In this document: piece by piece, positions 3,122-19,238 of the stretch | Layout: every line of letters begins with the position of its first letter | Numbering within the stretch: the first letter of the stretch is position 1 | Assembly (NCBI GenBank): GCA_964449585.1 | Contig: CAYUZE010000005.1 | Location: 46,596-110,595, forward strand | Source of the DNA: an uncultured Gammaproteobacteria bacterium | GTDB taxonomy: Bacteria; Patescibacteriota; Microgenomatia; UBA10105; UBA927 | DNA: 64,000 nt | Reading direction: 5' to 3' | Program-made: the position numbers and the translations under genes | Notes under the pieces: generated by a model | The model's database searches: none | What the model was told of the DNA's origin: nothing | The model's input: only the letters and a program-made list of their open reading frames with translations

Positions 3122-4366
3122 TTACTTTGTAACCCACTTCTCCAGCGCCCGTTGCAGTTCGGGGCTGTCTTTGGCTTCAGATAGGGGAATGCCGTTAAGT
3201 GCCGCATTGAGTGACTGAATGATCGCCCGCGCCCCTGCGGGAGTGCCGTCGGGATGTCCGTGGATGCCGCCGCCGAAGTTCATCAGTAAATCTTTGCCAA
3301 GGATCGACACAAGGTCGGGGATATGTCCGGGGTGCAGTCCGCCCGAGGCGGTAGGGAGGGTCGTTTTTAGCCCGTACCATTCACTGCGGAGAAAATTATT
3401 GATCGTCACCACTTCTTCGCGGCCTCCTTCCATTTTGCCGACCACGGTTCCGGTGTGGAACGAGTCGATACCCGCAAGCCGCGCGAGTTTGGCGATGACG
3501 AGCATCGAGATACCGAAAATTTTAGATCGGGTAAATGCCGCATGCATCGCGCGGTGCCCGTGGATCATCAGTCCGTAGTTGCGGTTTCGTATCCCTTGGG
3601 TCGCGGCAAAGCCCGCGGTCAGTACATCGATCATCAGGCAGTTCGCGCCGCTATCGCGCACGTAGTTTGCGCGTTTCATCATTTCTTCGTAACTGGCCGT
3701 GATATTGAATGCATGGATTTTGGCATTGCCGATTTCAAGGTAATGCTTTTCCTTCATCCTGCGGGTGACTTCATCCACCCGGGTATAGAAATTATCAAAT
3801 GTCATGTTGGCAAGGTTTTCGTCATCTTTGACGAGGTTGACGCCCCCGTCCCATACCTCCATACACGCTTCGGCGTGGCGGACACTGGTAAGCCCCAGTT
3901 TGGGTTTGATGATAGAACCGGTGAGCGGACTGTCTTTCACCCCCGTGAGGTTGCGGATGCCGTCAATGCCGAGTGCGGGACCGGGGAATGATTTGACGAA
4001 TACCTCGGGAAATTCCAAGTCCTCAAGTCGGAGTCCCACGATTTCCTTGAGTCCGAACACGTTGCCCGTGATAGAAGAGAGGAGTTGGGGGATACTTCCC
4101 GCCTCAAACAAATCCAGTGGATACGCAACGACAATTCTCCCCGTAGTTTCATCCATGTCGATGACTTTGGCATGTAACTTATCCCAGATTGCTTTTTCCT
4201 CGAGCCCGATGTCCGTCCACGTGCCGACGGAGGATTCCGCCGCCACACCTCCTGCGGTCTTATCAAACGGTTCACCTTCCACTTTGAGGGTAAAGGTAGC
4301 CAAAATATGCTTGGTCTTGTCGACTTTTTCGTTGAGTGCCAGATAATGGATGTACCGATTTGCCAT
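3122..4366 (-). CDS. rbcL: Ribulose-1,5-bisphosphate carboxylase large subunit, form III (II/III)-like
   Basis: 414 aa; motifs GGVNLVKDDENL (GGxDxxKDDE active-site loop), GLHPGHIP and catalytic Lys region; length and motifs fit the archaeal/CPR-type RuBisCO. Confidence 0.85.
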   Translation of the reverse strand: MANRYIHYLALNEKVDKTKHILATFTLKVEGEPFDKTAGGVAAESSVGTWTDIGLEEKAIWDKLHAKVIDMDETTGRIVVAYPLDLFEAGSIPQLLSSITGNVFGLKEIVGLRLEDLEFPEVFVKSFPGPALGIDGIRNLTGVKDSPLTGSIIKPKLGLTSVRHAEACMEVWDGGVNLVKDDENLANMTFDNFYTRVDEVTRRMKEKHYLEIGNAKIHAFNITASYEEMMKRANYVRDSGANCLMIDVLTAGFAATQGIRNRNYGLMIHGHRAMHAAFTRSKIFGISMLVIAKLARLAGIDSFHTGTVVGKMEGGREEVVTINNFLRSEWYGLKTTLPTASGGLHPGHIPDLVSILGKDLLMNFGGGIHGHPDGTPAGARAIIQSLNAALNGIPLSEAKDSPELQRALEKWVTK

Positions 4367-4373
4367 AGAAATA

Positions 4374-5267
4374 TTATAGAGAGATAAACGGATAATTCAT
4401 ACGGGCGGTTTCGACAATTTGTTCCCCGCGAAGCAATCCCGCTTCGGTAATGATCGTGATGTCTTTATCATACGGCGTAAAGTCAAAGGCGGGGGCAAAG
4501 ATCGAAAGCTTTTCGGGCGCATCGTTCCATATTTCCGACGGATTGCGGGTTTCGATAAGCGACTGGTCAAACGGGCGAGGATCATATTTTAACAACGTGG
4601 AGAAGCAATACACGGGAATATTTCGCGCCCGTGCCGCAAGTACGATGGCAAGACTGCCGATTTTGTTGACAAACCCCGTGTCGGTCAGTAAATCCGCCCC
4701 GATAAATACCGCCGAAATATTCCGCTTCGGATCGGCAAGCACCGAGGCAGCGGCGCTATCGACGATCAGTGTCACGGGATCGATACCCCCGTTTATGAGT
4801 TCCCGCACCGTGAGTCTTCCTTGAAACAGAGGGCGCGTTTCGGTGGCGATAACCGAAAGTTTTTTGCCTTCCCCATGTGCCGCCAGAAACGCGTTGGTGA
4901 CCGTTGATGCGTGGCAATGGGTCAGGTAGGCGGCGCCGTCCCGCATGAGTTTGGCGCCGTGCTCAGCGATTTTGTGCTTTGCATCCTTTATATAGGTCGT
5001 ATAAGTGGCGATTTTTCCCAATAGTGCCGCGGCATGTTTGGGCGAGTCGGCAAACATACTCCGTACCGCATTTTGTGCCAGCGGCTCGGTAGGGCGCGCG
5101 TATGCCAGTGCATCGGCCATCTCTTTTAGCGTCGTTACGGGTGTTTCGGGGGCATTGCGTACCGTGAGGGTAAGGGTATCAAGCATGGCGAGCGCAACGT
5201 TGGTGGCACCCTGAATGTTTAAGGCTTTGATATCCGAAACCACCTGTTTGTAGGGCAGCATATACAC
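4374..5267 (-). CDS. Ribose-1,5-bisphosphate isomerase (eIF-2B alpha/beta/delta-like family, E2b2)
   Basis: eIF-2B-like fold motifs (THCHASTV, IATETRPLFQGRLTVRELI, VFIGADLL); directly upstream of, and co-directional with, RuBisCO as in the AMP/nucleoside salvage pathway. Confidence 0.7.
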   Translation of the reverse strand: MYMLPYKQVVSDIKALNIQGATNVALAMLDTLTLTVRNAPETPVTTLKEMADALAYARPTEPLAQNAVRSMFADSPKHAAALLGKIATYTTYIKDAKHKIAEHGAKLMRDGAAYLTHCHASTVTNAFLAAHGEGKKLSVIATETRPLFQGRLTVRELINGGIDPVTLIVDSAAASVLADPKRNISAVFIGADLLTDTGFVNKIGSLAIVLAARARNIPVYCFSTLLKYDPRPFDQSLIETRNPSEIWNDAPEKLSIFAPAFDFTPYDKDITIITEAGLLRGEQIVETARMNYPFISL

Positions 5268-5304
5268 CCATTGTAGGAAGAAAATTACGCCAAGACAATA
5301 CGCG

Positions 5305-5709: not shown

Positions 5710-6045
5710 TTGGGTATGGTGAAAGAGAAACATGTCTATGCGTGCGCGGAAGGAAGGATTCGCGGTCGGGAACTGGCCGATCTGGCGAACGCGACGAAAG
5801 TAATTTCCGCCCGTTTCTTTCCCGGAGGTAAAAGAAGCCTGGTAGAGTTGGATAAGAGTGCGCTACAGGCGACAATAGCCGAGGATGAAATGGTGGTATT
5901 AATTACGGAACCGCAAACGAGTTGGCGGGAAGATTATGAGTTGTCCGAGCGGGCAAAAGTGTTGCTTGGGAACGCCGGCAGAAAGTGGCGAAGCGATACA
6001 CACGCCAATCTCATCGTCGAATTGGAGTTACGAATGCTTCAGTAG
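5710..6045 (+). CDS. Hypothetical protein (track start is TTG; likely ATG start at 5716)
   Basis: ORF only; no homology recognised. Confidence 0.3.
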   Translation: MGMVKEKHVYACAEGRIRGRELADLANATKVISARFFPGGKRSLVELDKSALQATIAEDEMVVLITEPQTSWREDYELSERAKVLLGNAGRKWRSDTHANLIVELELRMLQ

Positions 6046-6205
6046 CCACTTCGTACCATCCTTCCTGAATCCTCGGGTCGAATGCGCGGGATCGTGTTCC
6101 ACTTGCTGATTTATTTTCAAGATAGTACTTACCCAGAAAATAACCCACCCATTTTCACCATAACCGGAAGAAAAATAATACCGGCGTGTGAGGGGCTTGG
6201 GAATC

Positions 6206-6523
6206 TTATTCTTCCGGAAATTTGAGGACGCCGGTAATAAATAAATCAATGCTGTGAAGCAACTGAATCTGTGTTTCCCTTGCCCCCTTGAGGGGATTTT
6301 TTCCTCTATTTTCCTGACGTAGCTCGCGGATTTGCCGTTGATCCATGGAGAGCACCGTGGTAACAATTTCTTCAAATTCTGCTCTTGAATGACCCCAGGT
6401 ATCAGCCCATGCTATTTTCTCGGGAGTCAGGAAGTGTGTCTGTAGGCGATTACGGTTAGCCTGGATAAAACTCAGTTCTTCGTCCGGGCTAATTCGTCGC
6501 GGCATGCGGTGGGATTCATTCAT
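6206..6523 (-). CDS. Hypothetical protein
   Basis: 105-aa ORF; no recognisable motif. Confidence 0.3.
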   Translation of the reverse strand: MNESHRMPRRISPDEELSFIQANRNRLQTHFLTPEKIAWADTWGHSRAEFEEIVTTVLSMDQRQIRELRQENRGKNPLKGARETQIQLLHSIDLFITGVLKFPEE

Positions 6524-6591
6524 TTCACAAAAATTATAGCATTAATTGGGTATGCGGGTACGTCCTATGGGTGTGGATAGGTTGAACACAT

Positions 6592-6600
6592 GATACAATC
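6592..6600 (+). promoter_or_regulatory. Extended -10 element TGATACAAT, 5 nt upstream of the relict ychF start codon (original ychF promoter)
   Basis: TGnTACAAT followed by ATGAATCTGAAAGTAGG (the relict ychF 5' end). Confidence 0.4.
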
Positions 6601-6605
6601 TTGGC

Positions 6606-6622
6606 ATGAATCTGAAAGTAGG
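6606..6622 (+). repeat. attL-like direct repeat ATGAATCTGAAAGTAGG (relict ychF 5' end)
   Basis: 15 of 17 nt identical to ATGAACTTGAAAGTAGG at 12741-12757 (current ychF start); TTGG is also shared just upstream in both copies. Confidence 0.6.
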
Positions 6623-6784
6623 AACCCTTGTTACAATGCTCCAACTCTTAAATTAAGATTTTTACTTACAATCCCAGCTCCCAACAGAGGAAGAATAATC
6701 TCTAGTCGTAGTAATTTAGGAAGAATTATAAAAGCTCAGGTCCCAGACTTGACTGCTACGATTTAATGAACTAATCTACTGCTG

Positions 6785-6806
6785 CTGCCCGAAAGGGCCT
6801 TTTTTT
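6785..6806 (+). terminator. Candidate intrinsic terminator (GCCCGAAAGGGC hairpin followed by a T7 run)
   Basis: Perfect 4-bp GC stem with GAAA loop then TTTTTTT, immediately before the first element ORF. Confidence 0.35.
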
Positions 6807-7616
6807 ATGGCATACATCGCGAAAAATAAAGCAGTAATAATTCTGCTATTTATAATTCTTAGTCTCTCTGTTGCAGGATGGTACGCATCTAAGTTACCAC
6901 TTGAATCTACTTCAAAAGATTTTGCTATTACGGTCCTTAATGGTTTTTGGACCGCTTTATTTGCCTTTATTTTCTTAGGGCTTTCATCTATTGCATCAAA
7001 AGTGTTTGGTCGTGAACTAAAACACTATAACTCATTGGTAAATTTAGAGACGCAACTTAACGAAATGATTGGAGTTATTAAGGATAATATCTACGTAATG
7101 AAAGGTTATAAAACAGTTATCCTTAAAGGAAATATTCATTGGGGGAATTTAAGACCGATATTTATTGATAAATCTCATTATGAGAATTTACACGATATCA
7201 ATCTTATAAACAGAGTATTTTCATTCTTTTATCAGGTTAGAAAAATCAATGATGATATGGAAAATTTACAGGCTGGTTACAATGACCTAAAGAATGCATA
7301 TATACAAAAACAGATACGAGTTGAACAATATGTAGAAAATGCTCGAAGGATTTGCGAAGTCCTTGATGATTTGGAAGACTTTTCTGAAGAATTGTTCGAT
7401 GAGCTTTTATCCCTGTTAACCCGTGTTCAAATTCAAATTAGGAAGGAAAAACCACTCACCGCAATTATTAATGAAGCACTCATATATACAACAGGGGATA
7501 AGATTACATTGTCAGAATTTGAAACCGCAAAGAAAAGAATTAAATCGGAACTTGAAACATCGGCTAAAGAATCTGCCGAACAAATCGCCAAGATTCATAA
7601 AAGGAGAAAGAAATGA
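6807..7616 (+). CDS. Membrane-anchored coiled-coil protein (2 N-terminal TM helices; K-rich C-terminus)
   Basis: Hydrophobic segments at about aa 9-27 and 48-68, then a long predicted helical/coiled-coil region; AT-rich codon usage. Confidence 0.45.
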   Translation: MAYIAKNKAVIILLFIILSLSVAGWYASKLPLESTSKDFAITVLNGFWTALFAFIFLGLSSIASKVFGRELKHYNSLVNLETQLNEMIGVIKDNIYVMKGYKTVILKGNIHWGNLRPIFIDKSHYENLHDINLINRVFSFFYQVRKINDDMENLQAGYNDLKNAYIQKQIRVEQYVENARRICEVLDDLEDFSEELFDELLSLLTRVQIQIRKEKPLTAIINEALIYTTGDKITLSEFETAKKRIKSELETSAKESAEQIAKIHKRRKK

Positions 7617-7870
7617 AAAAATATATCTTTATGGTCATGCCGCCACAATTTAATACCTCAGCAGGAGTAGAAGTTGACGAGGTAGAAATTAAAACTCTTA
7701 CTGAAGAAGTTGAGATAATAAGAATCCGTATTATGGCTTCAGAAATTAAGGAAGCATTTGAAAAAGCGAAGCAGGAGTTGTCCCAAATTATTACAGTATC
7801 TTTTGGGCACATGAAGAACTTCGATTACTATGCTTTTAAACTTAGATTAATTGAAGTTGAAAATTTTTAG
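7613..7870 (+). CDS. Small hypothetical protein (85 aa), translationally coupled to upstream gene
   Basis: ATGA start/stop overlap with the upstream ORF at 7613-7616. Confidence 0.4.
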   Translation: MKKYIFMVMPPQFNTSAGVEVDEVEIKTLTEEVEIIRIRIMASEIKEAFEKAKQELSQIITVSFGHMKNFDYYAFKLRLIEVENF

Positions 7871-9186
7871 ACAACAAGCCAATTATGGCTTTCTAAATAG
7901 GCTTTTACGGTATCGGGGTGAGGATGTTCAAATCCAAAAATCCAAAATATTTCGTTTATCAAATTGATAAAGTAATCTTGAAATCGCTTCTTATCATTAA
8001 GTATCGAGGTGTCAAGCTCCAACGGATAATAGTAATGTTGCAATAATCCCATCTTGTCGTCATCAGGAAAAGTTTCTCTCCCTGTTAATACTGGTTTGAT
8101 ATAGATGTCTTCAGTGCTCTTTAATGAGAGACTACCTTTTATTCCACCTTGATACTCAAATAATTTATAAAAGTTTGTTGTAGCTTTCATTACAGCAAAA
8201 GTAAGGGAAATTAGATGCGAAATGTAGATAAATTTATATCCAGTTTCTAAATCCAAATTTAGAACATCTTTTGACAGGCGAACAAAACCCGATGAGTAAA
8301 TCTGTTCATTATGAATTCCTCCGTAATCCTCACGCCAAGAGAACGTCATAACCCCTTCTGGGATTGGTTCCATATTAACTGACGGAAAGTTAATGCGAAA
8401 AGTCCTATCACCATCTCGTATATCAGTTAGTCTTTCTTTTATATCTCGGGGCGTGACAATTGGCGTAGGATAGTAAGGTTGTAAAATCACACTAAAAATA
8501 GAAGCGTTGGACCCGAGTTCTTGTTGGAAAATTTTCGATTGAAATTCTGGTGGAGGTTGATGTTGCGTTAGCGCTTCTTGTCTTGCGCGTTTATAATTTG
8601 CTTTCTCAACTGCAATTTTCTTCTTGCGTTCTATTTCTCCTCTGTGTAAAGCAGCTTCATAGATTTCATTGGATTGTTGTATTTTGAGGTTTCTTAATAT
8701 TTCAGCATTTTCTTTTTTTCTTACGAGTAATTCAGTTGCCTCTGGTGATGCTAAATCAACAGAAGGCGTTATATTTCCTGTTCGGACATATATTTTGGGG
8801 TCATTTTGTACATAGTAGGGAGTTCTATCCCCTTCAAATACTCTTATTAAGATAAAATTTCTTCCATTTACTTCGTTTGTTGGATGCACTTCATACAACG
8901 GAAAGGGAGTTATATTGGAAGCCCACTGATGTATTCTTTCAACGTCTTGAGCATTAACAGGAATGCCAGTCCAAGCAGAGGGGACGCCAGTTGTTCTATT
9001 TTCCTCTACGCCAATAATGATTACGCCCCCTCTAGTATTTGAAAACGCGGCGATAAGTTTGGATAAACCATCCCGAGGCAATTCCTTCTTATAGTCAATT
9101 TGGAGACCTTCTCTTATTCCTTCTTGGCAAAAAGTCTCAATTTTAGCGAAGTCAAATGATTTGATGGGTTTATTGAGGATATCCAT
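7867..9186 (-). CDS. AlbA_2 (Schlafen-like, divergent-AAA/putative DNA-binding) domain protein with uncharacterised C-terminal domain
   Basis: N-terminal motif LSKLIAAFSNTRGGVIIIGVEEN matches the AlbA_2/PF04326 signature (AFANxxGGxIxIGVxD); aa 200-439 lack recognisable motifs. Confidence 0.55.
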   Translation of the reverse strand: MDILNKPIKSFDFAKIETFCQEGIREGLQIDYKKELPRDGLSKLIAAFSNTRGGVIIIGVEENRTTGVPSAWTGIPVNAQDVERIHQWASNITPFPLYEVHPTNEVNGRNFILIRVFEGDRTPYYVQNDPKIYVRTGNITPSVDLASPEATELLVRKKENAEILRNLKIQQSNEIYEAALHRGEIERKKKIAVEKANYKRARQEALTQHQPPPEFQSKIFQQELGSNASIFSVILQPYYPTPIVTPRDIKERLTDIRDGDRTFRINFPSVNMEPIPEGVMTFSWREDYGGIHNEQIYSSGFVRLSKDVLNLDLETGYKFIYISHLISLTFAVMKATTNFYKLFEYQGGIKGSLSLKSTEDIYIKPVLTGRETFPDDDKMGLLQHYYYPLELDTSILNDKKRFQDYFINLINEIFWIFGFEHPHPDTVKAYLESHNWLVV

Positions 9187-9221
9187 GTTATCTGGACGCT
9201 ATTATATACCCTTATTAAATT

Positions 9222-9500
9222 CTAATGAATGAAATAACTCAAAAGGTGTGTAATTATTGGGGCAATAAAGGCGGGTCCAATTATCAAGCCTAATACAAAG
9301 GCTAAGATTAAAAGCTTCCAATTAACAAATAAAAGCACTAGTCCCAGTAGTAAGCAAACAAAGGCATTTATATTTAAAATTGAGATAACAGAAGGACGAT
9401 TGAATAGAGTTGGTCTCTCCGTTACATTAAATTTCCCCCACTTATTTAAGGTAAAACCTCCAAAAGAAAGTAGAAATAGAATTCCCAAAAGATAGTCCAT
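9222..9500 (-). CDS. Small membrane protein (about 3 TM), first gene of the operon with the AlbA_2 protein
   Basis: 92 aa, highly hydrophobic; 35-nt gap to the downstream co-directional AlbA_2 gene. Confidence 0.45.
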   Translation of the reverse strand: MDYLLGILFLLSFGGFTLNKWGKFNVTERPTLFNRPSVISILNINAFVCLLLGLVLLFVNWKLLILAFVLGLIIGPAFIAPIITHLLSYFIH

Positions 9501-9531
9501 ATAAAGAATAAGCTTATTATGAGGCTAAATG

Positions 9532-9546
9532 CACCATCATATGGTG
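9532..9546. promoter_or_regulatory. Perfect palindrome CACCATcatATGGTG in the divergent promoter region (candidate XRE operator)
   Basis: 6-bp inverted arms with 3-bp spacer, 39 nt upstream of the XRE start and upstream of the divergent TM/AlbA_2 operon; adjacent inverted copy of the ATTTAGCCTCA motif at 9520-9530. Confidence 0.45.
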
Positions 9547-9584
9547 TAGATTAGAGGATACACCCAACATACCCTGTATGCAAC

Positions 9585-9800
9585 ATGGCAGGGTACAAAA
9601 TAAACCAGAAACTTGGACAACGAATCCAACGAGCGCGGAAGGGGAAGAAGATATCTCAAGAACAATTTGCCGAAGCTATCGGAGTCCATCGAAATCAAAT
9701 TGGTCGCATTGAGCGAGGGGAAACGAATGTCCCAATGTACACCTTTTATAAAATCGTCAAAGCCCTCAAATTAAAGGCTCGAGATTTACTTCCTTTTTAA
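9585..9800 (+). CDS. XRE-family helix-turn-helix transcriptional regulator
   Basis: 71 aa; LGQRIQRARKGKKISQEQFAEAIGVHRNQIGRIERGETNVPMYTFYKIVKAL is a canonical HTH_3 (Cro/C1) domain. Confidence 0.8.
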   Translation: MAGYKINQKLGQRIQRARKGKKISQEQFAEAIGVHRNQIGRIERGETNVPMYTFYKIVKALKLKARDLLPF

Positions 9801-9876
9801 TGAGTGCGGGAAGGTTTTATATCAAAATATATCAAAGTGATATTAGATATACCGAGGGGCAACCGGCGAATTTACC

Positions 9877-10266
9877 TTAAAGCATTGCTCTCATAAGCAT
9901 GCCTACGGAACGCACAAAGTCATCTAACTTCTCATAGTCTTTATTTACCACCTTCGTAATACCCCTATCTCGAAGTTGCTGATTGTAAGCAGGCATAGAG
10001 GATATTCCAATCACCTTATCTGTCCCAATTTTCTCTAGGTTAATTGTGTGAAAGGAGCCTCCCGCTTTGCAATCGCGGTCTAGGAGCACGATGTCCCAAG
10101 TAATTGATTCGGTTCTATTTACATAGTCTTCTACTTGGGAGTATTCGGAGAGGACGGTAGTAGCTATCTCCACATTACATTCATCCTCAAGAGTACGGAG
10201 AGCCTCCATAAGTTTCGAGAGCGTAGCTAAGTCATCTTCAAGGATAAGTACCCGACAGGTTTTCAT
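9877..10266 (-). CDS. Stand-alone response-regulator receiver (REC/CheY-like) domain protein
   Basis: N-terminal VLILEDD acidic pocket and central IVLLDRDC phospho-acceptor-like Asp in a 129-aa protein with no output domain. Confidence 0.5.
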   Translation of the reverse strand: MKTCRVLILEDDLATLSKLMEALRTLEDECNVEIATTVLSEYSQVEDYVNRTESITWDIVLLDRDCKAGGSFHTINLEKIGTDKVIGISSMPAYNQQLRDRGITKVVNKDYEKLDDFVRSVGMLMRAML

Positions 10267-10671
10267 ATGCCTAGATTGAAGTATAAACGATTCTTAATAG
10301 ATGGGGGGCTGGACAGGAAAACTATACACATTGATAGCCCGATGAAATGAGTAACCGCGTGCCTTGGTTTGTAAAAATTATAAGGTATTTGAAAAGTGAC
10401 ACATTTCAACTATAGAGCGTCCTGATGCACTAAATACCAGTTGACAGGGTGACAATAGAAATTATTCAATGGGCTTGTCTTAAGGGACTACCGTTAGGGC
10501 TTAGAAGACGTTAAAGAAACGAAGCGATAACGGCGACCGAAGCAAAGCAAACGAAACCTATACAGATAAACAGTTAAGACACCTCAGCCGCACCGGCTAG
10601 GAAAATCTGGCAGGGAGAGTGAAGCCAAGCGAGGGAGATGTATTTCTGAGTTATGGAGGGAGAAAAAAACG

Positions 10672-10863
10672 ATGAAAAAGTTACAAAGTGACACTGTAAG
10701 CACAAAACAGGTGCGAATTGACGCTGAGTGGGTAAATGCTCTGGCTTATCTCCGAGCAGACCTCCACGTGTCAATGAAGAGCCTTGTAGAGGAAGCTCTA
10801 AGCAAGTGCTATGCATTGAATTCAGAAGGGAAACCTTATCGAATTGAGAAAGCGTCAGATTAA
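10672..10863 (+). CDS. Small ribbon-helix-helix-like protein (possible CopG/antitoxin-like)
   Basis: 63 aa; VRIDAEWVNALAYL resembles an RHH beta-strand/helix start; weak. Confidence 0.3.
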   Translation: MKKLQSDTVSTKQVRIDAEWVNALAYLRADLHVSMKSLVEEALSKCYALNSEGKPYRIEKASD

Positions 10864-11140
10864 AGCTTGGTATCGAACATTTATCATTTCCATTTTCATT
10901 ATGAACATCAATAGCTATTTAACCGTCATAAGCGGAAGAACCAAATTGACCCTGTATGAATTCGATACGTATAAAAAAACGACGCAGTCCGACGATTGTA
11001 TTTCGCTATATGGTGGATGCGGGTGGAGCCACGCCTATCAAACGGATGTATAGCCGTATATTTGAGTTAGCGTATGAGCGAGTTATAGAGCGTAGGAATA
11101 AGATAAGTACTTAACAAAGTATAATGGAATAAGGGAAAAT

Positions 11141-12799
11141 ATGGGTGAACCATTCCAACCAACTAGTAGTGATAAAGTTCCACGAAAAGCAGCAATATAC
11201 GCTCGTGTTTCTACTGAAAATCAGGAGAAGCAACAAACAATAGACTCTCAGATTGATGAGGTCAAAAGGCGAATAGAGGTAGATGGAAACACCTTGACCG
11301 AGGAGAATATCTATATTGATGAAGGCTGGTCAGGGATGCTTTTGGCAAGACCTGCGTTAGACCAGTTACGTGATGCCGTTTCATCTAAGCGGTTCGATAT
11401 GGTGTACGTATATGACCTCGGGAGGCTATCGAGAGATTTTACCAACCAGCTTGTATTAATTAAGGAGATTGAAGATTCGGGGGTAAAGGTTGTTTCTTTG
11501 CATGACATTAACCCAGAAAACGATGAGCAAGGGTTTATAAGAAATATCTTGGGTAGCTTCCATGAGTATGAAAGAGTCAAAATCGCCGACCGCATGCGCA
11601 GAGGCAAACTTTATAAAGCAAGAAATGGCAACATTATCAACGGAAATGCGATTTATGGCTACTCGTATATTAAGAAAAGCGGCGATATACCCGCATCATG
11701 GGTAATAAACGAGCAAGAGGCAAAAGTCGTAAGGATGATATGGCAATGGGTAGGGGAGGAAGGAGAGTCAATTCGGGGTGTTATAAAAAGGCTTTACGAT
11801 ATGGGTATTACTCCTCGCAAACAAAAACGTCCCATTTGGACAAAGGGACCAATTGTACGAATACTCCAATGTAATACATATGTGACCGGCAAAGCCCATT
11901 ACAACAAGTCAGAAGCTACTATCGCAAAACGTCCTAGGAACAGCGACCGATACAAAAAGGTTAAGAGAACGAGTAGAAAAGTGCGACCGGTAGAAGAATG
12001 GATACCATTCGACGTTCCGATAATCATTCAGGATTTGGCGTTATATGAAAAAGTACAGAAAATATTCGAGCTTAACAAGAAATATGCAAATAAGAAAAGT
12101 AAGGGAAAGTATTTATTTACGGGAAGGATATTTTGCCAATGCGGAAGCCGTATGAACGGTGACGGGTGCAATAAATATGGTCACTTCTACTACCGGTGTA
12201 CGAGTAGAATCCACAAATTTCCTCTAGATACGTCTTGTAAGGCTGGTGGTGTGAATGCGAAGCTATTGGATACGTTGCTTTGGAATGCTCTTAAGAAACA
12301 AATTAGCGATAGCGTGCTTCTCCGGCAATATGCGGAGGAATGGCTTGAATCAAAGCAAAAGCATCTCGATATCTCAGAGGAGGTTGAGAGATTGCAAAGC
12401 ACGCTTAACAGCCTTTCTCAGGAAGAAGAGAGATATGCAAAGGCATATGGGGCAGGTTCACTAGATTTAAGTTTATTCACTAACCTTATTAAAAATATAC
12501 GAAGCCAAAAGACCGATGTTCAGGAAAAGATGTGTGGCATCATGGCTACCCATACGAGCGACATATCTCCAGTGGAAGTTGATGAGCTCGTAAAAGAATC
12601 GTTGGAAGTAATTGAAAAGTTAGATTGGGATAACAAAATTGCCACAGTTCGCGATATAATAGAGCGCGTTATTGTCAGAGAACAAACTGGAGTAGAGGTG
12701 TTCGTACATTTACCTATGCCATCTACCCAAAAGTTGGATTATGAACTTGAAAGTAGGCATCGTCGGGCTTCCCAATGCAGGGAAATCCACCTTATTTAA
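11141..12799 (+). CDS. Large serine recombinase (resolvase N-terminal domain plus recombinase domain plus Zn-ribbon/coiled-coil)
   Basis: AIYARVSTENQ catalytic Ser motif, then YDLGRLSRDF; Cys cluster CQCGSRMNGDGC...YYRC typical of large serine integrases; 552 aa. Confidence 0.85.
   Translation: MGEPFQPTSSDKVPRKAAIYARVSTENQEKQQTIDSQIDEVKRRIEVDGNTLTEENIYIDEGWSGMLLARPALDQLRDAVSSKRFDMVYVYDLGRLSRDFTNQLVLIKEIEDSGVKVVSLHDINPENDEQGFIRNILGSFHEYERVKIADRMRRGKLYKARNGNIINGNAIYGYSYIKKSGDIPASWVINEQEAKVVRMIWQWVGEEGESIRGVIKRLYDMGITPRKQKRPIWTKGPIVRILQCNTYVTGKAHYNKSEATIAKRPRNSDRYKKVKRTSRKVRPVEEWIPFDVPIIIQDLALYEKVQKIFELNKKYANKKSKGKYLFTGRIFCQCGSRMNGDGCNKYGHFYYRCTSRIHKFPLDTSCKAGGVNAKLLDTLLWNALKKQISDSVLLRQYAEEWLESKQKHLDISEEVERLQSTLNSLSQEEERYAKAYGAGSLDLSLFTNLIKNIRSQKTDVQEKMCGIMATHTSDISPVEVDELVKESLEVIEKLDWDNKIATVRDIIERVIVREQTGVEVFVHLPMPSTQKLDYELESRHRRASQCREIHLI
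12741..12757 (+). repeat. attR-like direct repeat ATGAACTTGAAAGTAGG (current ychF start)
   Basis: Partner of the 6606-6622 repeat. Confidence 0.6.
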
Positions 12800-13817
12800 C
12801 GCGCTATTGAAAAAACAGGTGGCGTTTGCCGCAAACTACCCGTTTGCTACCATTGAGCCAAACATCGGGGTCGTGCCCGTACCTGATGAACGGTTGGCAA
12901 AAATTGCCGAAATCACTAAAGAAGAAGATCACCTGGAAAAACTGCCGCCGCTCCGTCCCGCCACCGTGGAGTTTGTTGACATCGCTGGACTGGTGAAGGG
13001 CGCAAGTGAAGGCGAAGGATTGGGAAACAAATTTTTAGCCCACATTCGTGAGGTGAATATTATCTGTAACGTCCTCCGGTTTTTTCCCGACTCGAACATT
13101 GTCCATACCGAAGGGGGAATAGATGCCGAGCGTGACCGTACCATCGTCGAAACGGAGCTCGTGCTCGCCGACCTGCAAACACTTGCCAAACAGCAGGAGC
13201 CCAAAATGAATGCAACGAAGGAAGATCGGGCGCGGTATGAACTCGTTAAACGACTTAAAACCGCCATGGATGCGGGCAAGCGCGCGGGAGAAATCCTTAC
13301 CGATCCCGACGAACGGGAGCTTATCCGCCCGCTCCAACTCTTAACAATGAAGCCGATCGTCTACGTGGGCAACGTCTCCGAATCACAGCTTGCCGTTCCG
13401 CCGCAAACGAATCTTCATCCGATGGTGTTTATATCCGCGCAAACCGAATCTGAACTTGCCGCCATGACGCCCGAGGAACAAAAAGATTATCTTGCATCGC
13501 TCGGAGTTGCCGCGTCGGGACTTGATCTGCTAATCCGCACCGCATACGAAACACTGGGACTTATATCTTTTCTCACGACGGGAGAACTGGAAAGTCGTGC
13601 CTGGACGATCGAAAAGGGCATGAAGGCACCGGCAGCCGCCGGGGTGATTCACACGGATTTCGAAAAGAAGTTTATTAAAGCGGATACCGTGTCGTATGCC
13701 GACTTTGTTGCCTGCGGCGGTTGGAAAAAGGCACGGGAAGCCGGAAAAGCCCGCAGTGAGGGTAAAGAGTACGAGATGCAGGACGGTGACATCGTGGAGT
13801 TTAAAATCGGCAGTTAA
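12741..13817 (+). CDS. ychF: Ribosome-binding ATPase YchF (Obg-like GTPase family)
   Basis: MNLKVGIVGLPNAGKSTLFNAL G1 motif, TGS C-terminal domain; 358 aa. Confidence 0.9.
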   Translation: MNLKVGIVGLPNAGKSTLFNALLKKQVAFAANYPFATIEPNIGVVPVPDERLAKIAEITKEEDHLEKLPPLRPATVEFVDIAGLVKGASEGEGLGNKFLAHIREVNIICNVLRFFPDSNIVHTEGGIDAERDRTIVETELVLADLQTLAKQQEPKMNATKEDRARYELVKRLKTAMDAGKRAGEILTDPDERELIRPLQLLTMKPIVYVGNVSESQLAVPPQTNLHPMVFISAQTESELAAMTPEEQKDYLASLGVAASGLDLLIRTAYETLGLISFLTTGELESRAWTIEKGMKAPAAAGVIHTDFEKKFIKADTVSYADFVACGGWKKAREAGKARSEGKEYEMQDGDIVEFKIGS

Positions 13818-17683: not shown

Positions 17684-18382
17684 TTATGCCGGGGTAGCCA
17701 GCATTGCCTCGGTTATCTTTGTCATTTTTCCTTCGATGATATCTTCAAGATTGTGCCAGCTTTTGTTTATGCGGTGATCGGTAACCCGATTTTGGGGGAA
17801 ATTATAGGTACGGATTTTTTCACTCCGCATCCCGCGTCCGATGATGGAACGTTGTTCACTCATGGACTGTTCTCTGGCCAAAAGCTCCCGTTCCCACAAT
17901 CGTGCGCGCAACATGGACATGGCTACCTGCCTGTTTTGGTACTGGTCACGTTCATTTTGGCACTGTACGACGATCCCGGTGGGCTTATGTCGCAGGCGTA
18001 CCGCCGAACTTACTTTGTTCACATTCTGTCCGCCTTTGCCGCCTGCGCGATAAAATTCCCATTCCACATCCTCGGGTTTGATATATACTTCGTTTTCGGG
18101 AATTTCAGGTAATACCGCAACCGTCGCGGTGGAGGTGTGAATTCTGCCGTGCCGTTCGGTGGATGGTATCCGCTGGACACGATGGGTACCCGCCTCATAT
18201 TGCAGTTTGGTAAAAGCCGCGGCACCGCGGATACGCACGGCAAAATCATCGAGCTGTTCGGTTTTCCAGCCGACGATTGCCGCATAACGGACGTACATGC
18301 GGAGCAAATCAGCCGCCCACAGTTTGGCTTCTTCGCCTCCCGGGCCCGCACGAAACTCCATGATGGCTATATCGGTGTTCAT
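17684..18382 (-). CDS. prfA: Peptide chain release factor 1 homolog lacking N-terminal domain 1 (232 aa)
   Basis: PST tripeptide in [18 protein letters not shown] (RF1 PxT motif); GGQ motif in [12 protein letters not shown]; aligns to E. coli RF1 from about residue 110 onward; in-frame TAA 21 nt upstream of the ATG and only 82 nt to the rpmE stop. Confidence 0.75.
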
Positions 18383-18464
18383 AGTGAAAGACGTCGAAAA
18401 TCGTTACATGTCTACGTCGAAAAATTGCACACGAGAAACGTGGGAACAAGCGCGGTGCGTGTTC

Positions 18465-18764
18465 CTATTTCAAGCCCATCAACATTTCCTTGAGGGACTT
18501 CGGTGCGACAGCAGAGGATTGCTGTTGCTTCTTTTTCTTCTTTGATACATACGTACTGGCGGCAGCCTTTTGCTGCTTGTTTTGGAAGCGTTCCACGCGA
18601 CCCATGGTATCGACAAAGCGCATCTCGCCGGTAAAGAACGGGTGGCATTTACCGCAAATTTCGACCTGTATTTTGTCCTTGGTTGCTCCCACGGTAAAGG
18701 TATTGCCGCAGGCACAGGAAACGACGGCTGACGGATACCATTTCGGATGAATGTCGGATTTCAT
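18465..18764 (-). CDS. rpmE: 50S ribosomal protein L31 with Lys/Gln-rich C-terminal extension
   Basis: [11 protein letters not shown]...CxCG...[10 protein letters not shown] Zn-ribbon; about 30 extra C-terminal residues (KKKKKQQQ...). Confidence 0.8.
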
Positions 18765-18812
18765 AGAAGACTATTATAGCAAAGAATTTGTATTCCGTAC
18801 AGAGTGGGGTAT

Positions 18813-19238
18813 TTAGGGGTTATTAGGGTCAAATTCGTCATACTTTGCCAGTTTGGCTTGGAGCCGCAGGGATTCCAGTCTCGAGATGGGCTTTCTGCGG
18901 CCGTAAATGGGGTTATTGACGTTGGGATTATCGTCCTTATCCCGCCATTCCATGTAGTAATCCATGACATGTTTGCCCTTAACCTGTTGCAGGGCCACAA
19001 TCGGCACCAGTCGGTACTCCGACGTTATATCAATGCCTCCCGATCTTTCGATAGCCTGCTTCCTCCGTAGGGTTATCTCCATCTCCATGAAATCTCGCGT
19101 AAGTTCGGGAAAAAGCCGATCCGCTTCCGCAAGCTTACGGAGGTTATACACGCCTAAAATACTTGCGGCGATATCTGGGCGTTCCGACCGGGGTGAGGTA
19201 AAGCGTTTTCGCAGTCCGTCAATAAATCCTTCTCCCAT
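18813..19238 (-). CDS. Hypothetical protein
   Basis: 141-aa ORF; no recognisable motif. Confidence 0.3.
   Translation of the reverse strand: MGEGFIDGLRKRFTSPRSERPDIAASILGVYNLRKLAEADRLFPELTRDFMEMEITLRRKQAIERSGGIDITSEYRLVPIVALQQVKGKHVMDYYMEWRDKDDNPNVNNPIYGRRKPISRLESLRLQAKLAKYDEFDPNNP

Follow-up and report, generated by a model that had tools for sequence, protein, structure and literature searches.

The window, that is the whole stretch of 64,000 nucleotides (64 kb) analysed here, is typical DNA of the Candidate Phyla Radiation (CPR): its genes are small and include those of type IV pili and a form II/III RuBisCO together with an IF-2B-like isomerase. Among public sequences, its nearest relatives bear the labels Candidatus Gottesmanbacteria, Woesebacteria or 'Patescibacteria group'. 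On its reverse strand rpmE, the gene for ribosomal protein L31, is directly followed by prfA, which encodes a short release factor 1 (RF1). The locus has the following features.

17684..18382, reverse strand: prfA with ATG start, encoding a 232-aa RF1 that consists of domains 2, 3 and 4 and lacks domain 1
18026..18034, reverse strand: GGQ catalytic motif, residues 117-119, in domain 3
18158..18166, reverse strand: PST, the PxT 'peptide anticodon', residues 73-75, inside the invariant HRVQRxPxTE...RIHTS block
18236..18256, reverse strand: 10-residue deletion relative to full-length RF1 in the domain-2 beta-hairpin, at about residues 43-49 (QLD/DFAVR), placed by alignment
18383..18464, reverse strand: rpmE-prfA spacer of 82 nt, with an in-frame TAA at 18404-18406
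18465..18560, reverse strand: C-terminal extension of L31, 31 residues plus stop, with a Lys/Gln-rich linker
18468-18503, reverse strand: conserved motif that ends the L31 tail, as in relatives L003-L026 and L030-L033
18561..18764, reverse strand: rpmE, L31 core, residues 1-68

The in-frame TAA lies 21 nt upstream of the prfA ATG and, because 82 is not divisible by 3, the rpmE stop falls in another frame than prfA. With this TAA and rpmE directly upstream there is no room for the approximately 100 codons of domain 1. An earlier note, made from the sequence alone, had described a 232-aa ORF with PST and GGQ, a TAA 21 nt upstream and an rpmE stop 82 nt away in another frame; both motifs could be placed on the sequence and the stop codons lie where it had put them. 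The hairpin deletion, a shorter RF1 C-terminus and the conserved end of the L31 tail had escaped the note.

Domain architecture of the short RF1

Pfam identifies a full RF-1 (GGQ) domain in the 232-aa ORF (E = 1.2e-39) and only the second half of PCRF (model positions 102-194 of 194). The NCBIfam prfA model NF001859 matches over its positions 106-340 of 347 with 321.6 bits, under its cutoff of 400, and TIGR00019 gives 314.5 versus a cutoff of 423; both scores fall below cutoff because domain 1 is missing. In the alignment with PDB sequences, query residues 6-227 correspond to residues 111-344 of E. coli RF1, which places residue 1 at about residue 106, in keeping with the start near residue 110 and the absence of domain 1 that the earlier note had proposed. 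The C-terminus is also shortened with respect to full-length RF1 according to the structure-sequence alignment. Residues E18, Q70, P73, T75, H82 and T83 are invariant or nearly so in an alignment of 40 sequences that includes full-length RF1. An AF2 model of the protein has a mean pLDDT of 82 and its best PDB matches by Foldseek are ribosome-bound RF1 structures in the open form (TM 0.85-0.90, rmsd of about 2.5 A). The RF2 tripeptide SPF is absent from the 232-aa RF1, and the comparison with the RF1, RF2 and PrfH families that the note had suggested yields 321.6 bits for prfA, 218 for prfB (cutoff 370) and 75 for prfH.

Conservation and selection

The same short RF1 gene, with its ATG, its upstream in-frame stop and the rpmE-prfA order, occurs in over 20 independent assemblies. 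Nineteen orthologous loci taken from different projects have the ATG in common and an in-frame stop 3-51 nt ahead of it. The gap between rpmE and prfA is mostly -4 to 108 nt in these loci, with a few of up to 531 nt, and ranges from -17 to 531 nt among relatives at large; where the flanks are readable, rpmE is directly upstream in most loci. The best 120 database clusters (78-88% identity) are all 224-256 aa long, and several of the short RF1 genes among these matches are located on contigs of 1.17-1.23 Mb. The 19 orthologues show pN of 0.07-0.27 and pS of 0.72-0.91, the synonymous sites being saturated, and the short RF1 is under strong purifying selection. Since the 19 orthologues in independent assemblies have the same start and architecture, chance is excluded.

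These data bear directly on whether the truncation could stem from faulty assembly or annotation, or the gene be a decaying pseudogene, as might be thought given that the window is a single sequence and that one GTDB genome (L027) has prfA split into two frames. Against this, the identical protein with the same neighbours is present on two independent Logan contigs, the common ATG and upstream stop recur in the 19 orthologues from different projects, none of the 120 closest clusters falls outside 224-256 aa, and the sequence is under strong purifying selection with all catalytic and decoding residues intact. Furthermore, given the 82-nt spacer and genes that overlap in some relatives, about 100 additional upstream codons are impossible. 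We consider an artefact or pseudogene extremely improbable, and the assembly errors by which the note imagined a full-length RF1 might be restored were not found in the more than 20 assemblies that have the same short gene. A programmed frameshift or a fusion with rpmE was rejected as well, given the spacer of -17 to 531 nt and the in-frame stop that is always present.

A few irregular sequences were encountered: the short prfA split across two frames in one GTDB MAG (L027:8808-9493), a duplication of the first 18 codons of prfA about 130 nt upstream in another GTDB MAG (L024:10001-10832) and a prfB with two frameshifts on one metagenome contig (L128). They probably reflect errors of assembly or the occasional pseudogene.

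Synteny and phylogeny in Microgenomates

The gene is part of a conserved block of DnaB, lactamase_B, HisRS, EamA, L31, RF1, (HtrA), CtpA, S18, SSB, S6 and YchF. The same syntenic block encodes RF1 of 331 (P0126), 303 (P0123) and 256 aa (P0124) in other Microgenomates, and it is this block, together with the rpmE-prfA position, that identifies the short gene as an orthologue of prfA. The gene order rpmE-prfA is that of many Gram-positive bacteria.

Matches to the prfA model begin at position 3 in a full-length control, at positions 46 and 45 in the 331-aa and 303-aa proteins, at position 101 in the 256-aa protein and at position 106 in the 232-aa protein. Among 50%-identity representatives there is a tight cluster of short RF1 (P0121, 235 aa, 75% identity), followed by few intermediates and, beyond these, by ordinary RF1 of 350-365 aa with about 50-55% identity. 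In a neighbour-joining tree of domains 2-4 the 331-, 303-, 256- and 232-aa forms make up one clade with a bootstrap of 95, in which the 303-aa RF1 branches as sister of the fully truncated forms (67% support). The domain-2 hairpin deletion is common to the 235-, 256- and 303-aa Microgenomates RF1 and to P0127, a 232-aa protein dealt with below, and is absent from the 331-aa RF1 and from the Parcubacteria RF1 of contig L036. The natural reading of these comparisons is that domain 1 would have been eroded stepwise from a single ancestral prfA, the short gene being no new paralogue.

Short RF1 in Parcubacteria

P0127 (52% identity) belongs to a second family, of which the best 120 matches are all 230-255 aa long. 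Labels in this family are Zambryskibacteria, Liptonbacteria, Colwellbacteria, Minisyncoccia and Paceibacterota, that is Parcubacteria, and it includes genes on contigs of 0.8-0.9 Mb. In the neighbour-joining tree of domains 2-4 the Parcubacteria short-RF1 clade, with a bootstrap of 100, stands apart from that of Microgenomates. An RF1 of 230-255 aa is the norm in Parcubacteria, and the trait reaches far beyond the lineage of the window. Since the Microgenomates clade still has members with a partial domain 1 and the Parcubacteria clade is separate, complete loss would have taken place at least twice and probably three times.

RF2 and stop codon usage

The 898,885-bp Parcubacteria contig L036 carries a 248-aa RF1 gene 5 kb from a second release factor gene, located beside ftsE-ftsX. 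This prfB (3854-5300, reverse strand) encodes SPF and GGQ and contains CTT TGA C, the classic +1 frameshift site, and the reconstructed RF2 of 349 aa covers prfB model positions 2-352 of 353; the locus has one short RF1 and RF2 and no further release factor gene. The best 120 relatives of this RF2 are 281-345 aa long and align with 82-95% of its length. Three are on contigs of 898885, 827485 and 99775 bp, and short RF1 genes are found on contigs of these same lengths.

RF2 of Microgenomates was sought in metagenomes by a DNA pattern for GGQNVNKV[ST][ST]AV with the RF2-specific Trp-Gly at the proper distance behind it. Nearly all of the at least 120 loci returned are RF2. Microgenomates-type prfB genes are single ORFs of 334-357 aa with about 90-115 residues ahead of the start of domain 2, and the RF2s of the lineage have SPF and prfB scores of 405-428. 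One RF2 found by the pattern is identical to KKS98707.1 / UniRef100_A0A0G1DMD4, 'Peptide chain release factor 2, Candidatus Gottesmanbacteria bacterium'; further ones carry the label Microgenomates, on contigs 0.88-1.02 Mb long. The Gottesmanbacteria RF2 (P0510, 338 aa), in a prfB-ftsE-ftsX-PcsB context, scores 422 bits versus the cutoff of 370, and residues 2-228 of the window RF1 align with residues 93-331 of Gottesmanbacteria RF2. Judged by sequence, RF2 keeps domain 1, in Parcubacteria on the same contig as a short RF1 and in Gottesmanbacteria in different assemblies. The minimal class-I factor envisaged by the earlier note consequently holds for RF1 and fails for RF2.

Both activities are required by the codon usage of the window. 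Its 43 Pfam-supported genes end in TAA (31), TGA (7) or TAG (5), and the use of both TAG and TGA means that RF1 and RF2 activities are both needed. A change of the genetic code was rejected, since TAA, TAG and TGA all serve as stops and long conserved genes run without interruption.

Two further observations concern RF2. In L039, L044, L060, L063, L068, L077, L086 and L087 prfB is an uninterrupted ORF with no +1 frameshift site, unlike prfB of L036, so that one CPR branch seems to have given up RF2 autoregulation and another to have retained it. In the GGQ domain (window 17870-18100) the short RF1 is 66-72% identical to Microgenomates RF2 (L128, L087) over about 70 residues, compared with 38% overall, and the L036 RF1 and RF2 paralogues share an identical 16-residue run in this domain. 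This likeness suggests concerted evolution or gene conversion, which have been reported for release factors of other phyla (PMC4530459).

Comparison with PrfH and other release factors

Loss of domain 1 is also known from PrfH, which keeps a domain 2/4-like module and GGQ, and the short protein might therefore be an auxiliary, PrfH-like or rescue-type paralogue beside a full-length prfA elsewhere in the genome, an alternative that the earlier note had itself raised. PrfH is however characterized by an altered loop, pairing with RtcB, sporadic horizontal transfer and rescue of damaged ribosomes, while the short RF1 has the PxT loop and decoding residues of canonical RF1, has no RtcB in its neighbourhood or in related loci (its neighbours being rpmE, HtrA and EamA) and is vertically inherited at the prfA locus. 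Its prfH score of 75 bits is far from the cutoff of 166.65 and from the 321 bits obtained with prfA. It occupies the ancestral position next to rpmE, where the orthologous locus of relatives has a longer RF1, and neither the 64-kb window nor about 370 kb of related loci contains another gene of the release factor family; on the L036 contig, the one short RF1 is accompanied by RF2 only. We find a PrfH-like paralogue quite unlikely, and the alternative is not borne out by the position and scores of the gene. As for a release factor paralogue in the window itself, this candidate was dropped when tblastn against the window and related loci matched prfA alone.

ArfB (YaeJ) and mitochondrial ICT1 likewise have the GGQ domain and no domain 1, but they are without the codon-reading domains 2/4 and use a C-terminal tail that enters the vacant mRNA channel. 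In the short RF1 domains 2/4 are present, and its match to the ArfB model is confined to residues 97-132, with 55 bits versus a cutoff of 100. Canonical RF1 of T. thermophilus, T. maritima and E. coli (PDB 4v63, 1rq0, 5j30) has 45-52% identity over domains 2-4 and shares the PxT loop, GGQ, the switch region and the fold of the open ribosome-bound state; unlike it, the short form is without the domain 1 of about 105 residues, has the 10-residue hairpin deletion and ends in a shorter C-terminus. No prmC gene was found downstream of the short prfA at the window locus.

The L31 tail

Family models cover residues 1-68 of the 99-aa window L31, leaving a tail of 31 residues, which agrees with the approximately 30 extra Lys/Gln-rich C-terminal residues that the earlier note had pointed out. 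L31 of the Gottesmanbacteria type is 99-103 aa long, with a Lys-rich linker and a strongly conserved C-terminus ending in (L/A/S)K. More distant Microgenomates L31 (102-108 aa) end in the motif variants PKTIREMLERVKARA, PKTLREMFDKAKTSQ and PKSLREMLLSVAS; PKTIREML and PKTLREMF are among the variants seen across Microgenomates lineages, in which the preceding Lys-rich linker varies. The 120-aa L31 beside the 331-aa RF1 has a different tail, and the 72-88-aa L31 beside short RF1 in Parcubacteria has a short basic tail without the motif.

The position of L31 directly upstream and its tail of 31-45 residues with a conserved end motif across Microgenomates could be taken to indicate that the function of domain 1 is supplied in trans, by the tethered tail of a co-transcribed L31 or else by a separate domain-1-like protein. 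A separate protein was sought with an HMM of domain 1 built from 24 full-length RF1, which recovered the L036 RF2 (E = 1.7e-4) and the partial domain 1 of L033 (E = 1.2e-3) as positive controls and, with a best E of 1.2, gave no match in the window and the flanking DNA of about 20 relatives; the possibility in the earlier note that domain 1 is encoded as an ORF of its own thus found no candidate in these regions. For the L31 tail, a 303-aa RF1 that has part of domain 1 adjoins a tailed L31 of 108 aa, and Parcubacteria with a short RF1 have the motif-less L31. The tail was rejected as a substitute for domain 1, since tail and truncation are not co-distributed. L31 is situated at the central protuberance and the 30S-head bridge, far from the L11 stalk. 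The 141-aa ORF that adjoins rpmE in the window is not conserved in relatives. Altogether a supply in trans seems very unlikely to us. The L31 tail is a conserved, lineage-specific extension of a ribosomal protein, separate from the truncation of RF1. No description of it was found in the literature searched, and Tsurumaki et al. (2022) make no mention of it.

Further observations on the window

The 141-aa ORF (18813-19238, reverse strand) is flanked by EamA and rpmE and matches no Pfam family. The same-species contig L001 has it too, and in other Gottesmanbacteria it is absent or replaced by an unrelated, opposite-strand ORF of 112 aa. As a partner of RF1 it was discarded, for lack of a family match and of conservation in relatives.

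A TATAAT-like box (gctataatagtcttctATG, window 18765-18790) is located 7-9 nt upstream of the rpmE ATG. Such a box 7-9 nt before the ATG is also found at Microgenomates prfB (L068, L063, L050 and L102), and no Shine-Dalgarno sequence is visible at rpmE or at the prfB genes that have the box, which hints at leaderless mRNAs or mRNAs with a very short leader. Promoter and terminator scans of the prfA locus gave nothing above shuffled expectation.

At 3122-5267, on the reverse strand, the gene for the large subunit of form II/III RuBisCO adjoins the IF-2B-family (ribose-1,5-bisphosphate isomerase-like) gene, a CPR/archaeal nucleotide-salvage pair that is kept near the same block in L003-L006. Directly upstream of ychF, positions 6000-12800 form an island of low GC (0.37 versus about 0.50) that contains a gene with a Schlafen/AlbA_2 domain (7867-9186), an unannotated ORF of 269 aa and a large serine recombinase (11141-12799). 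This island is probably an integrated mobile or defence element; on the other side of ychF, related genomes have different genes (MOSC, NUDIX).

Loci L008, L014, L017, L018, L020-L023 and L025-L028 show the Microgenomates gene order and are titled 'uncultured Gammaproteobacteria bacterium'. On such GTDB representative MAGs these titles appear to be placeholders or wrong labels.

Discussion

To our knowledge, domain 1 has been treated as universal in bacterial class-I release factors, and we know of its dispensability being demonstrated only with engineered E. coli proteins. We think it likely that the 232-aa ORF is the working prfA of its organism, a canonical RF1 that has shed domain 1 by reductive evolution. 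It is predicted to be catalytically active, to be recycled independently of RF3 and to be the sole RF1 of the genome. The earlier note had left the choice between a lineage with a class-I release factor that lacks domain 1 and a domain 1 encoded elsewhere; conservation, synteny and a search that returned no domain-1-like ORF in the window and some 20 related flanks favour the former.

The following mechanism is proposed. The short RF1 would enter the A site at UAA or UAG, where the codon would be read by the intact domain 2/4 unit, by means of the G-G-E-E helix tip, the PST loop, Q70 and the I-H-T residues. Opening of the switch loop would then allow the GGQ loop of domain 3 to reach the peptidyl-transferase centre and hydrolyse peptidyl-tRNA. 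The missing part is the arm that touches the L11 stalk and is required for the stimulation of RF3, and departure of the factor may be spontaneous or driven by something other than the contact between RF3 and domain 1. UGA would be served by a separate RF2 with domain 1.

A direct functional precedent is the truncated E. coli RF1 engineered by Mora, Zavialov, Ehrenberg and Buckingham (2003), which has the same architecture of domains 2-4; that protein is a laboratory construct in a host with RF3, whereas the CPR form is natural, ancient, under purifying selection and fixed in large clades. According to PMC1586002, which cites Mora et al. (2003), E. coli RF1 deprived of domain 1 retains its codon specificity and still releases peptide in vitro, and it is functional in vivo; stimulation of nucleotide exchange on RF3 requires the domain. 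A reviewer remark in the same source holds that domain 1 appears to matter more to RF2 than to RF1. The CPR pattern, in which RF1 is repeatedly truncated and RF2 never, matches this reported asymmetry in the need for domain 1. Loss of RF3 would not by itself account for the truncation, given the many bacteria that have no RF3 and yet retain domain 1.

A full-text literature search yielded no description of a CPR RF1 without domain 1, and no such RF1 is mentioned by Burroughs and Aravind (2019), Baranov (2006), Tsurumaki (2022) or a paper on disorder in minimal genomes. The novelty lies in the natural variant; molecules of this kind, and the way in which they are likely to work, are already known. 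PGAP names such proteins only 'PCRF domain-containing protein'. Since the NCBI equivalog models miss the short RF1, surveys could wrongly score CPR genomes as lacking prfA, and a missed short prfA could distort calls of completeness or of the genetic code for these genomes.

The truncated RF1 is a conserved native form, represented by hundreds of sequence clusters in Microgenomates and Parcubacteria, two of the largest uncultured bacterial groups, and extends the list of reduced CPR ribosomal components by a translation factor. Evolution has repeated here a known laboratory truncation, which would confirm from nature that RF1 is able to function in the absence of domain 1 and that RF2 tolerates its loss less. 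It entails a testable prediction on RF3 and the L11 stalk in CPR ribosomes, and the asymmetry between RF1 and RF2 as well as the role of domain 1 become directly testable. Only tentatively, and with more doubt than conviction, do we extend this to the proposal that RF1 lost domain 1 independently at least twice, probably three times, across CPR, with RF2 always keeping it. If true, termination in CPR would have been rewired such that RF1 docks and leaves without contact with the L11 stalk or RF3, a change that may relate to the loss of RF3 or to a remodelled GTPase-associated centre of the reduced ribosomes, and CPR would constitute a natural system in which RF1 and RF2 have mechanistically different cycles of binding and recycling.
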